From an archaeon (GTDB taxonomy: Archaea; Nanobdellota; Nanobdellia; Pacearchaeales; GW2011-AR1), in the NCBI GenBank assembly GCA_043821585.1, contig JBDRCQ010000002.1:49658-113657 (forward strand): a stretch of 64,000 nucleotides of DNA. Direction: 5' to 3'. Each line of letters starts with the position of its first letter. Position 1 is the stretch's first letter. Made by a program: the position numbers and the translations under genes. Positions 11,063-18,437 of this stretch are shown piece after piece. The notes below the pieces were generated by a model. That model was not told the origin of the DNA. It was given only the letters and a program-made list of their open reading frames with translations, and made no database searches.

Positions 11063-11373
11063 TTTTACCTCCCGGTATTGTTGTATCAAAACAGTCTAAC
11101 TTTTGGCTAGAATGTTCTAACGTTTATAAGAAAAATTATTCACTTTTAAATGCTTCTATTTCCCTCCGTTCTGTTGAAAACCTCTTTTTGGGGATTGTTT
11201 GCACCCTCTAGCCCGCCCAGAAAGGATTTGTTATATTATTTGAAAATGTTTTGTAGCTTGATGTTATTAGGCAGTTCGTTTTTTAGATTTGTGTCGCGTG
11301 GTGGGGATTATCTGGTTTGAAAGATACATTTTTGTGACTAAATTATTATAAACTCTTAGAACGGTTGTATTTT

Positions 11374-15215: not shown

Positions 15216-15611
15216 ATGAAGAGGATTTATACGTATTCTTTAGTGGTCTGGGTGCTTTTTGTTATACTGGCGATTATTAACGGGCTTGTTCGCGATAAAT
15301 ATTATTCGGACTCTTTGAGTGAACTTTCGAAGTACCAGGTTTCTTCGGTTGTTTTGGTTTTTGTTCTTCTGATTGTTATGTATCTTTTCTTTAGAAAGTT
15401 TGGTGCTGCTTATTCAAATGGAGATTTGTGGAAAATAGGTTTTATGTGGCTTGTTTTGACTGTTGCGTTTGAATTTGTTTTTGGGCATTATATCGTGGGG
15501 CATGAATTGGGCGGGGCATTTGTAGATTACAACATTTTTGCGGGACGATTGCAGTTGTTGGTTCTGTTTTTTACCTTGATTGGGCCGTGGTTTGTTGCTA
15601 GAAATAATTAA
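15216..15611 (+). CDS. 4-TM membrane protein
   Basis: Four hydrophobic segments; FEFVFGHY and DYNIFAGRL motifs. Confidence 0.65.
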   Translation: MKRIYTYSLVVWVLFVILAIINGLVRDKYYSDSLSELSKYQVSSVVLVFVLLIVMYLFFRKFGAAYSNGDLWKIGFMWLVLTVAFEFVFGHYIVGHELGGAFVDYNIFAGRLQLLVLFFTLIGPWFVARNN

Positions 15612-17122
15612 TTTTGTTGTCTTCGGCCTCTTCTGGCTTGGCCACGAGATTGCCCTGTTGAATTAGGCCTTTTCGATGGTCTGTCGGTTCTGTAACTACT
15701 AGTTGGACGATTTTCTGTGCCGTAGCTTTTACTGTTTCCTCTGGATCTGCTACCGCTACTTCCGTAACTGCTGCTACGGCTTCCGCTTCTGCCATAACTT
15801 CCTCCGCTTCCGCCACCTCCGCCGCCAGATCTCCCGCCACCGCTTCTGGTTCCGGATCTGCTTCCCCCGCTTGATCTCCCGCCGCCTCCACTGCCACTTC
15901 TGCCCCTGCCTCCGCCGCCGCCACCTCGGCTGCCGCCTCCCCTAAATCCGCCTTGCCCACTTCTTCTCTGATTTCTTTCTTCTCTTCTTTCAGGCATCCA
16001 ACGAATTCTCGTTCTTTGTAGTTCTGGAGTTTCTTCTTTTTTGATGTTGAAGTCACTTTGCATGACGTTTTGGAAGTTTTCGTAGTCCCTGCTTGATACG
16101 AGATTGATAACCTTGCCTTCTTTTCCTGCTCTTGCCGTACGGCCAATCCGGTGTGTATATTCATCTTCAGATTTTGGAGAATCGTAGTTGTAGATATGAG
16201 TAACTCCTTTGATGTCAAGGCCTCTTGCGGCGACGTCGGTTGCTACCAAAATATTGACTTTTTTTGCGTGGAAGTCTGCGATCATTTTGGTTCTTTTTTC
16301 CTGAGAGTAGCCCCCATGAAGTGGAAGGGATTCAATTCCCATGAATTTTAAGTTGTTGACTATGAAGTCGACGTTTTTTCTTGTGTTACAAAAGACCATT
16401 ACTAAGTTTGATTTTTCACTTTCAAGGAGGTGTTTGAGTAATGAATATTTCAGGCTATTATCTACGTCGTAATAAACTTGTTCTAGTTTAGTCGGGTCGA
16501 CGTGGGGTTGGGCGTTTACTTCAATAGGGTCTTTCATGTGTCTTTTTGAGAGAAATGTTATGTCTGGGGAAATTGTTGCGGAGAATAGCATGGTTTGTCT
16601 TTCGTTAGGACATTCTGAAACGATCCTTATCACGTCGTCTCTGAAGCCCATGTCGAGCATTCTGTCTGCTTCGTCCAGGACTAGTGTGTTTACGTGCGAA
16701 AGGTTGATTGTTCTTTTGTTTATGTGGTCTAAAATTCTTCCGGGAGTGCCTATTACGATGTCTGCTGTTTCTAGTAGGCGTACTTGCCTTTCCATATTTA
16801 CTCCGCCATAGACTGCGATTATTTCAAGGTCTTTTGGTCCTGAAAATTCAGCGATTTCTTTTGAGATTTGTTCGGCTAGTTCTCTTGTAGGCGTTAAAAC
16901 AAGGCCCCTGATCCCATGTTTTCTTACTGCATTTTTTATTAATCCTACTGCGAATGCGAGGGTTTTACCTGAGCCTGTTGATGCTCCACCAATTACATCT
17001 TTTCCTTCTAGGATTAGCGGTATTGCTTTCTCTTGTATTTCGGATGGGGCTTCGAAGCCTCTTGCTTTGATTGTCTTGAGCAAGGGACTGTCTTTTCCCA
17101 ATAGTTTCTCAAATTTTTCCAT
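15608..17122 (-). CDS. DEAD-box RNA helicase with RGG/Ser-rich C-terminal tail
   Basis: Q motif (PSEIQ), STGSGKT, PTRELA, TPGR, DEAD, SAT, ARGLD and HRIGRTAR. Start placed at MEKFEKL. Confidence 0.95.
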   Translation of the reverse strand: MEKFEKLLGKDSPLLKTIKARGFEAPSEIQEKAIPLILEGKDVIGGASTGSGKTLAFAVGLIKNAVRKHGIRGLVLTPTRELAEQISKEIAEFSGPKDLEIIAVYGGVNMERQVRLLETADIVIGTPGRILDHINKRTINLSHVNTLVLDEADRMLDMGFRDDVIRIVSECPNERQTMLFSATISPDITFLSKRHMKDPIEVNAQPHVDPTKLEQVYYDVDNSLKYSLLKHLLESEKSNLVMVFCNTRKNVDFIVNNLKFMGIESLPLHGGYSQEKRTKMIADFHAKKVNILVATDVAARGLDIKGVTHIYNYDSPKSEDEYTHRIGRTARAGKEGKVINLVSSRDYENFQNVMQSDFNIKKEETPELQRTRIRWMPERREERNQRRSGQGGFRGGGSRGGGGGGRGRSGSGGGGRSSGGSRSGTRSGGGRSGGGGGGSGGSYGRSGSRSSSYGSSGSRSRGNSKSYGTENRPTSSYRTDRPSKRPNSTGQSRGQARRGRRQQN

Positions 17123-17221
17123 TTTCAAAAGGTTAAGAAATAGCAAACGTATTTCTTTAACAACATTTTATGTTGGATAATTAAGTTTGTAAATGAGGGT
17201 TTATTAAGGTTTGGATTAGGA

Positions 17222-18010: not shown

Positions 18011-18152
18011 GCTCTGTTGAAGGCCTCTTTTTTGACGGGCTCACAATTTCCCGCTATTCTTTTGCTTTCAGCAAAAAACCCTCCCTGTTCCTCCAAATCC
18101 ACCTCCGCCCCAAATAATTAGTAAGCCCGCGGCTTAGTTTTTTCAACAGAGC
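18011..18152. mobile_element. MITE copy A (142 bp), IS5/IS903-like ends
   Basis: Perfect 11-bp TIR GCTCTGTTGAA/TTCAACAGAGC; flanking 7-bp direct repeat TGTTTTT; internal homology to 60558-60700. Confidence 0.65.
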
Positions 18153-18212
18153 TGTTTTTTGTGTGCAATAGTTTAAATACCCTCGAAATTTTTGTTTTGC
18201 ACGGAGGTACCA

Positions 18213-18437
18213 ATGGATAACCATAGAAGCGGACCTAGAAGAGATGGCGGCGGATTTCGTGGCGGAGGCGGTGGTGGTGGCAGAGGCGGTGGCGGCAGAG
18301 GCGGATTTGGCGGGCCAAGAGAAATGCATACAGCTGTTTGCGACGAGTGTAAGAAGGAATGTGAAGTTCCTTTCAAACCCACTGAAGGCAAACCTGTCTA
18401 TTGTAAGGACTGTTATAAGAAAAAGAAAGGCTATTAA
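18213..18437 (+). CDS. RGG + CxxC-x17-CxxC zinc-ribbon protein
   Basis: REMHTAVCDECKKECEVPFKPTEGKPVYCKDC; GGAGGT RBS at 18203-18208; TATA at 18172-18179. Confidence 0.9.
   Translation: MDNHRSGPRRDGGGFRGGGGGGGRGGGGRGGFGGPREMHTAVCDECKKECEVPFKPTEGKPVYCKDCYKKKKGY

Follow-up and report, generated by a model that had tools for sequence, protein, structure and literature searches.

Non-autonomous elements with the ends of an IS903-like insertion sequence and a covarying G-rich core lie at a fixed spacing upstream of TATA boxes in a DPANN archaeon

Two intergenic elements in a 64,000-nt stretch of archaeal DNA (hereafter the window) are, with high probability, non-autonomous MITEs that carry the ends of a resident IS903-like IS of the IS5 family around an unrelated core and that were targeted to sites just upstream of TATA boxes. 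The family is selfish DNA of an ordinary kind, found in an unusual host (a DPANN archaeon with a genome of 1.2 Mb), and it goes beyond an ordinary MITE in two respects, precise insertion upstream of promoters and a G-rich core whose helices covary. A 6-bp spacing to the TATA box is common to the IS, to two end types, and to five related species, which makes the family a case of a transposon finding safe harbour in a very compact genome and yields, as a by-product, a way to locate promoters computationally in archaea that have not been cultured. In annotation, the elements should be masked as repeats and not labeled as regulatory RNAs or riboswitches.

The window is contig C2:49658-113657 of the host assembly (G000), which comprises 1.22 Mb in 22 contigs, has 41% G+C, is 87% complete and 88% coding, and contains archaeal 16S rRNA. 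The host is a DPANN archaeon, Pacearchaeota-like, since element-bearing relatives have been deposited as Candidatus Pacearchaeota and Woesearchaeota MAGs. These relatives are Pacearchaeota RIFCSPHIGHO2_01_FULL_39_44, Pacearchaeota UBA73, and one Woesearchaeota MAG, found by a loose IUPAC pattern search across genome contigs whose matches were mostly chance ones in G+C-rich bacteria. Two 16S rRNA genes of archaeal type are present in the host assembly, both at contig ends (C9:78-1515, 1308 bits; C11:32186-33626, 1293 bits); two copies would be unusual for so small a genome, and a mixed bin is another possible cause.

A preliminary description of the window, made from the sequence alone, had proposed two elements of similar length in the same orientation, and both are present with terminal inverted repeats (Table 1). 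In copy A the repeat is perfect over 11 bp (GCTCTGTTGAA...TTCAACAGAGC); copy B ends in GGCTCTGTTGAAAA...TTTTCAACAAAGCC on the plus strand of the window, which the minus strand reads as a 5′ end GGCTTTGTTGAAAAAGTT and a 3′ end GATTTTCAACAGAGCC. The two are 66% identical over their full length and share the colinear blocks first listed, all C-rich (AAAACCCTCCCTG at 18075-18087 and 60622-60634, CCAAATCC, and CCGCCCCAAA). The G-rich strand of copy A is the minus strand of the window, and its polarity is that of the parent IS, IRL to IRR. Copy B indeed has degenerate flanking repeats that agree at 7/9 positions (GCTCAGTTC/GCTCAGCCC, or GGGCTGAGC/GAACTGAGC on the minus strand), and the 9-mers flanking copy A agree at 6/9 (GGTGTTTTT/TGTTTTTTG). 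Copy A is the most diverged copy in the family and looks old; its terminal G is missing at both ends.

Table 1. Family members and associated promoter elements in the window
Feature	Position in window	Strand	Remarks
MITE copy A	18011..18152	-	142 bp; 144 bp counting mutated terminal bases 18010 and 18153
MITE copy B	60558..60700	-	143 bp, near-intact ends
Second, older structured core beside copy B	60723..60821	-	Covariance-model match, without IS903-type ends
Probable decayed family fragment	11167..11230	+	One end and C-rich remnants; low confidence
TATA box TTTAAATA of CxxC/RGG gene	18172..18179	+	Read from sequence
TATA-like box TTTAGATA	60535..60542	-	Exactly 6 nt past copy B duplication; 31 nt before ATG 60503

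Both copies adjoin promoters. From the end of copy A to the TATA box of the CxxC gene (ATG at 18214, Shine-Dalgarno GGAGGT at 18204) we measured 19 nt, in line with the roughly 20 bp estimated at the outset; the box lies 9-10 nt past the duplication. On the opposite side a TATA-like TTAAATAA lies 5-6 nt past the duplication, toward a 245-aa gene on the minus strand that has its ATG 52 nt away from copy A. The TATA-like box next to copy B faces a gene for a 142-aa membrane protein (60075-60503). On its other flank copy B directly abuts the second core, and the target duplication of copy B is the last 9 nt of that element. The second core scores 79 bits with the covariance model (E about 1e-17 over the genome, 9.6e-19 over the set of loci), retains helices P2 (GCGAUUUUG/CGAAAUCGC) and P3 (UCGAGG/CCUCGA) through compensatory changes, and is enclosed at about 60701-60834 by an outer imperfect inverted repeat of a different type (GCTCCATCCCAAATT... 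/ ...AATTTAGGGCTGAGC). The tentatively assigned fragment has one end, CGTTCTGTTGAAAACCTCTTTTTG (also read CGTTCTGTTGAAAACC), followed by C-rich remnants (CCCGCCC); the end alone scores (nhmmer E about 0.15), and a TATA-like CTTTTAAATG lies 5-6 nt outside its putative 9-bp duplication.

Copy A lies among genes for arginine/glycine-rich proteins (15608-17146 and 18214-18437). One neighbor encodes a DEAD-box helicase whose tail, roughly 130 aa long, is RGG/SG-rich; the product of the other is 74 aa long and combines an RGG-rich head with a CxxC-x17-CxxC tail. RGG boxes bind G-quadruplex nucleic acids; to connect these genes with the G-rich core of the MITE would be pure speculation.

The two copies belong to a family of about 20 elements on 5 contigs of the host genome, as the suggestion of a MITE family with IS903-like ends had anticipated. 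Searches for further copies returned 8 full-length ones by similarity (70-81% identity to copy A), 9 full-length and some partial ones with a profile, and 22 matches with a covariance model of the core (R1). Full-length copies bear ends GGCTCTGTTGAAAA and clear 9-bp duplications, are 142-148 bp long, have perfect terminal repeats of 11-14 bp, and contain no ORF of note. At least five copies have clean duplications: perfect ones include TACAGCAGG, CCAAATAAA, and GTTATTTGC (loci with perfect duplications are C15:159527, C21:40069, C5:44046, and C15:50814), others agree at 8/9 positions (CCTAACGCC/CCTAATGCC and TAGGAAACC/TAAGAAACC; C2:32123 and C19:29395), and many more flank the elements of relatives. 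Being short, non-coding, and dispersed, with terminal inverted repeats, fixed-length duplications, and an autonomous partner, these elements are MITEs. Copy B is 98% identical to C5:44046-44186 on another contig, and two other pairs share 96% and 90% identity, which indicates recent movement. The initial characterization of the family as old and diverged thus suits copy A but not these pairs.

The autonomous partner, an IS5-family transposase gene between the same ends, for which a search had been proposed, is present. Pfam DDE_Tnp_1 matches the host genome at three places, and the partner IS (C1:19629-20501) is 873 bp long with an intact 272-aa DDE ORF, ends GGCTCTGTTGAAAAAGTC and GGCTCTGTTGAAAATCTC, and a perfect 9-bp duplication, GAGGTGATC. 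The 5′ 18 nt of the MITEs equal the left end of this IS and their 3′ 18 nt its right end, with the same polarity relative to the G-rich strand; the MITE interior (~105 bp, non-coding) is unrelated to that of the IS. The transposase scores 51.8 bits against Pfam PF01609 (DDE_Tnp_1; cut-off 23, 1e-13) and 148.9 bits against NCBIfam NF033579 (IS5; cut-off 140), the latter model giving 356 bits for the IS903B transposase. Full-length IS are also found in G019 (873 bp, 80% protein identity, perfect 9-bp duplication TGCAGAACC) and G004 (879 bp, 63% protein identity, perfect 9-bp duplication GAATTTTTC). A transposase at E ≤ 1e-10 was not found in the MITE-bearing G005, G006, G007, and G009, which is weak counter-evidence because these assemblies are incomplete, and G004 and G016 carry the IS with no core matches.

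One remnant of the IS in the host genome was destroyed by its own derivative: at C15:16642-16896 (loci L004 and L017) an oppositely oriented MITE truncates the IS after its first ~107 bp, which comprise the left end and the beginning of the transposase ORF.

The likeness to IS903 extends from the ends to the target. The right end of copy B matches the first 12 nt of the IS903B inverted repeat (PMC10569121), as had been noted, and also the repeat start of IS903B on plasmid Rts1, where the element (1057 bp) is flanked on both sides by GACACAACG. Over 18 positions, GGCTCTGTTGAAAAAGTC of the partner IS agrees with GGCTTTGTTGAATAAATC of IS903B at 15. Both systems make 9-bp duplications, have ends that begin GGCT(C/T)TGTTGAA, and encode transposases that pass NF033579, although BLASTP aligns the two proteins at only 23% identity over 90 residues (E = 3e-6). 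The nearest annotated relatives of the transposase are haloarchaeal and methanogen IS5 elements (ISHvo2, ISHla2, and ISHxa2 families), themselves distant in sequence, with 27-32% identity over about 90% of the length. IS903B differs in length (1057 bp with a transposase of 307-322 aa, vs. 873 bp and 272 aa), and IS903 and IS903B are hosted by enterobacteria rather than a DPANN archaeon. Other systems offering comparison are MITEAba12/ISAba12 of Acinetobacter (PMC6382973) and further IS5-derived prokaryotic MITEs (PMC10969869, PMC11602168), described as short, non-coding, intergenic, hairpin-prone elements with IS5-family ends and 9-bp duplications that are moved in trans. Unlike MITEs of the MITEAba12 type, those described here have a covarying core, unrelated to the IS interior and common to different end types, and an insertion point fixed relative to an archaeal TATA box.

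Shared ends and the presence of 96-98% identical copies at different sites suggest that the MITEs are mobilized in trans. The IS at C1:19629-20501 would supply the transposase, which would bind the roughly 18-bp ends, excise the element, and insert it through a 9-bp staggered cut, thereby producing the 9-bp duplications. The cut would be placed such that 9 bp are followed by ~6 A-rich bp at the BRE position and then by the TATA box.

This placement is visible across the family. We scanned outward along the flanks (46 sides) of 24 elements whose ends are defined, from the host genome and five relatives, and found a TATA-like 8-mer starting 5-7 nt past the 9-bp duplication on 19/46 sides and in 17/24 elements, compared with a background of 4.35% of sides for the same criterion (148,176 intergenic positions, whole genome; P = 1.8e-14 binomial test). 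Offsets peak at 6 nt (11 cases), with every other offset seen at most twice; these values are blurred by an uncertainty of ±1 nt in the element ends. The remaining 7/24 elements have no TATA at 5-7 nt. The intervening 6 nt are A-rich (ACAAAG, AAAATG, GAAAAT, CAAATA, and similar) and occupy the archaeal BRE position, so the promoters point away from the element. Three full-length IS copies show the same arrangement, with exactly 6 nt in the host genome (where the spacing holds on both sides) and in G004, and a weaker TATA-like CTTTTATT in G019. In the host genome the distance from element end to start codon, as given by crude ORF calls, falls mainly into two clusters, one of 46-47 nt for the divergent side and one of 40-56 nt for the downstream side, and the sum of 9 + 6 + 8 + 23 gives 46 nt to the ATG, which would fit near-leaderless transcripts. 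Exaptation of the elements near promoters had been raised as a possibility. Their location is explained by the choice of target site, which they have in common with the full-length IS, rather than by any demonstrated recruitment.

As for how the target is read, the IS903 target motif is a palindrome, WTTYA-N9-TRAAW (Hu and Derbyshire, as tabulated in PMC2577343 Table 1), in which A/T-rich sequence flanks 9 bp. At the same positions the sequence here is NRAAW for the 5 nt next to the duplication, with an A/T content of 82-86% at positions +3 and +4 that holds on TATA-free sides as well. Unlike in IS903, the preference takes in a TATA box at +6 and applies mostly to one side. Our preferred reading is that a preference of the IS903 type, for sequence or for shape, now coincides with the BRE/TATA: the transposase would probably recognize an extended WTTYA-N9-TRAAW and respond to the A-rich BRE/TATA sequence or to its bent shape. 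It may instead respond to bound TBP/TFB. Landing just upstream of a promoter would also be landing in the one place where, in an 88%-coding genome, 140 bp break no gene. The fixed spacing could come in part from the survival of harmless insertions and not from target choice; such survival explains a location upstream of promoters, but not a spacing held to a single nucleotide.

If each insertion restores the target on the promoter side, the same 9 bp may be hit anew, and the survival of the target there accounts for tandem elements with shared duplications. Two MITEs with different end types share the duplication CCAAATAAA at C21:39942-40209 of the host genome, and in G019 (C154) the order is duplication, MITE, duplication, IS, duplication, with TGCAGAACC present three times. 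The latter tandem (C154:768-1873, L075) consists of a 224-bp MITE variant and a full 873-bp IS in the same 9 bp.

The interior of the elements forms the second distinctive feature. On the G-rich strand, the two ends pair as a 14-bp helix (P1) that encloses a core of roughly 95 nt, with a 9-10 bp helix (P2), a large loop with conserved unpaired UGGGGCG, AGGGNGGG, and GYGGGAAUC, and a hypervariable hairpin P3 (for example GCUGAAAGC, CCCGCUAAAGCGGG, CAUCUGUAAGAUG, and CUCCGUAGGAG). Helices P2 and P3 show compensatory changes. When 41 distinct cores were aligned to a covariance model built with a hand-set structure, to which the realignment is fitted, 85.9% of cells were paired vs. 63.2% in shuffles, and changes occurred on both sides in 15/16 pairs. 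Compensatory cells numbered 168 vs. 52 expected, and the covariation score was 0.597 vs. 0.193 for shuffled alignments and at most 0.169 with partners slid. MAFFT/RNAalifold on 12 cores recovered P2 only, the hypervariable P3 being misaligned. Wobble pairs are rare and without strand bias (12 G-U vs. 24 A-C among 645 cells). At least four runs of three or more G occur in 36/41 cores, and a G-quadruplex is predicted in the best fold of 25/41 (ViennaRNA with quadruplex energies). We considered a consistent G-quadruplex model and rejected it, since different copies use different G runs.

The core is not tied to one kind of end. A second end type, GGCKYTGTCCGGA, carries the same core and likewise makes 9-bp duplications (CGGCTAACA at C15:50814-50946 of the host genome; AGAATTATG and CCTTAATCT in relatives), and the core is found on still other ends and in copies without recognizable IS903-like ends. 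Apparent cases of the core inside full-length IS in relatives (L051, L056, and L065, all with an alternative 3′ end) proved to be longer MITE variants with an extra hairpin module. Covariation, together with persistence on different ends and in the absence of IS903-like ones, indicates that the fold is under selection. In the mechanism that we favor, the core would fold as nested helices, from P1 at the ends through P2 to P3, around the conserved G tracts, and it would be maintained by selection on the element itself, for example for a fold-back that brings the ends together or for a DNA-level structure; it would probably not be a host RNA gene. The core may thus act in mobility, or it may serve as a DNA structure or protein site beside promoters; a role as RNA is the least likely of the three. 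That copies without IS903-type ends retain the fold is explained by selection after insertion no less well than by selection for mobility.

Three copies of the core without IS903-type ends occur in other settings in the host genome. The 3′ end of a 410-aa gene harbors one of them (C5:71717-71828, L038), which lies between direct repeats of 22 bp, AAAAAAGAATTAACGAGTTTTT; their length, far beyond 9 bp, suggests a different route of insertion or duplication. Another, at C2:194450-194548, is flanked by a 10-bp repeat, ATCCAAAAGA. The third, at C5:87956-88055 (L035, 76 bits), falls in antisense orientation within a 460-aa ORF; either this call of a crude ORF finder is spurious or the copy lies within a gene.

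Among alternative explanations, the best placed, which we nevertheless consider unlikely, gives the core a DNA-level function after insertion: at about -45 to -160 relative to promoters it would be a movable module with a regulatory or architectural role. Its repeated GGGCGG-like boxes might form an array bound by a host protein, or it might adopt a cruciform or G-quadruplex to take up supercoiling or insulate the promoter. Pair changes replace one Watson-Crick pair by another and almost never yield wobble, so folding is open to both strands, and the abundant G runs, the predicted quadruplexes, the fixed position upstream of promoters, and the fold kept in copies without IS903-type ends would all suit such a module. 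Against it, the quadruplex predictions draw on different G runs from copy to copy, no candidate binding protein was identified, and the adjacent genes are functionally unrelated; moreover, insertion at this position is also seen for the full-length IS, which lacks the core, so the position says nothing about the core.

A bolder combination of these ideas has a smaller chance of being right. It has the IS and its MITEs homing to promoters with single-nucleotide precision by way of the BRE/TATA or of bound TBP/TFB, with the 9-bp target one BRE-width upstream, and delivering an exchangeable G-rich module, possibly a quadruplex-duplex, that is shared or swapped among end types and acts on the adjacent promoter. 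In the literature searched, no paper described promoter-proximal integration of this precision in archaea. The Ty3 element of yeast integrates at RNA polymerase III start sites, where it reads TFIIIB (TBP and the TFIIB-like Brf1). The resemblance would lie in a fixed, nucleotide-scale distance from a promoter complex of the TBP/TFIIB type, and we intend it as an analogy rather than a family assignment: Ty3 is an LTR retrotransposon with an integrase, whereas the element here is a DDE cut-and-paste IS that may read the DNA sequence rather than TBP or TFB.

Lower again in probability is the possibility that the element serves chiefly to carry a functional structured RNA, whether an RNA gene or cis leader and whether acting as small RNA, protein sponge, or RNA G-quadruplex. 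Strong covariation of both helices with conserved unpaired blocks is the pattern typical of RNA families, single copies fold better than shuffles (z -2.1 to -5.4), the core persists with a second end type and without IS903-type ones, and, among host-genome copies that have a downstream gene on the same strand, the G-rich strand is in most cases co-directional with it. Set against this, Rfam gave no match at gathering score in the 64-kb window and noise alone at E ≤ 10 around both copies (ARAGORN likewise found no tRNA), and the scarcity of wobble pairs without strand bias is unlike an RNA made from one strand. The adjoining promoters point away from the elements, with no internal TATA box and no promoter placed to transcribe them; neighboring genes lack a common function, and the core is restricted to part of one genus. 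We also considered a riboswitch or 5′ leader in particular, given that both copies in the window lie ~50 nt upstream of genes on the same strand and that one wobble pair favors the minus strand. We rejected it because the downstream genes are unrelated (SurA-like, membrane proteins, restriction-methylase, triosephosphate isomerase, FlaI-like ATPase, AspRS, and methyltransferase), TATA boxes between element and gene point away from the element, and wobble counts across the family have no strand bias.

Under the covariance model the core is confined to part of one genus. It is present in 6/21 genomes of the genus, with 22 matches in the host and 8, 11, 6, 20, and 16 in the other five, and in 0/20 genomes from other genera of the family and order. 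Among 401 genomes sampled across the phylum only 2 contain it, both of this genus (10 candidates were scored per genome, and weak matches may be missed). All genomes compared are incomplete MAGs, from which repeats are often absent. An empty-site comparison, which the preliminary description had proposed, succeeded for copy A: the promoter of its 245-aa gene (ACAACAATTAAATAG) is conserved and element-free in G006, G009, and G005. In G019 an element of a different subfamily sits at the same promoter and represents an independent insertion. For copy B no clean empty site was found; the neighboring gene differs in the closest relative, which makes that comparison uninformative.

These data leave almost no probability to the view that the elements are immobile, conserved regulatory or RNA elements at fixed orthologous positions (the outcome that the preliminary description had tied to a lack of further copies and transposase): copies adjoin promoters and one insertion is common by descent to two genomes, but the 9-bp duplications, the cognate IS, the empty promoter in three relatives, copy numbers of 0-22 within one genus, and near-identical copies on different contigs all speak for mobility. 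The one shared insertion pairs an internally deleted 85-bp element of the host (C5:11258-11342) with a 200-bp variant in G009 (L065). The flanks are homologous, both elements have the same odd end, GTTCTRTTGAAAAAG, and the syntenic neighbors share 64-74% protein identity, so the family predates the split between the host and G009.
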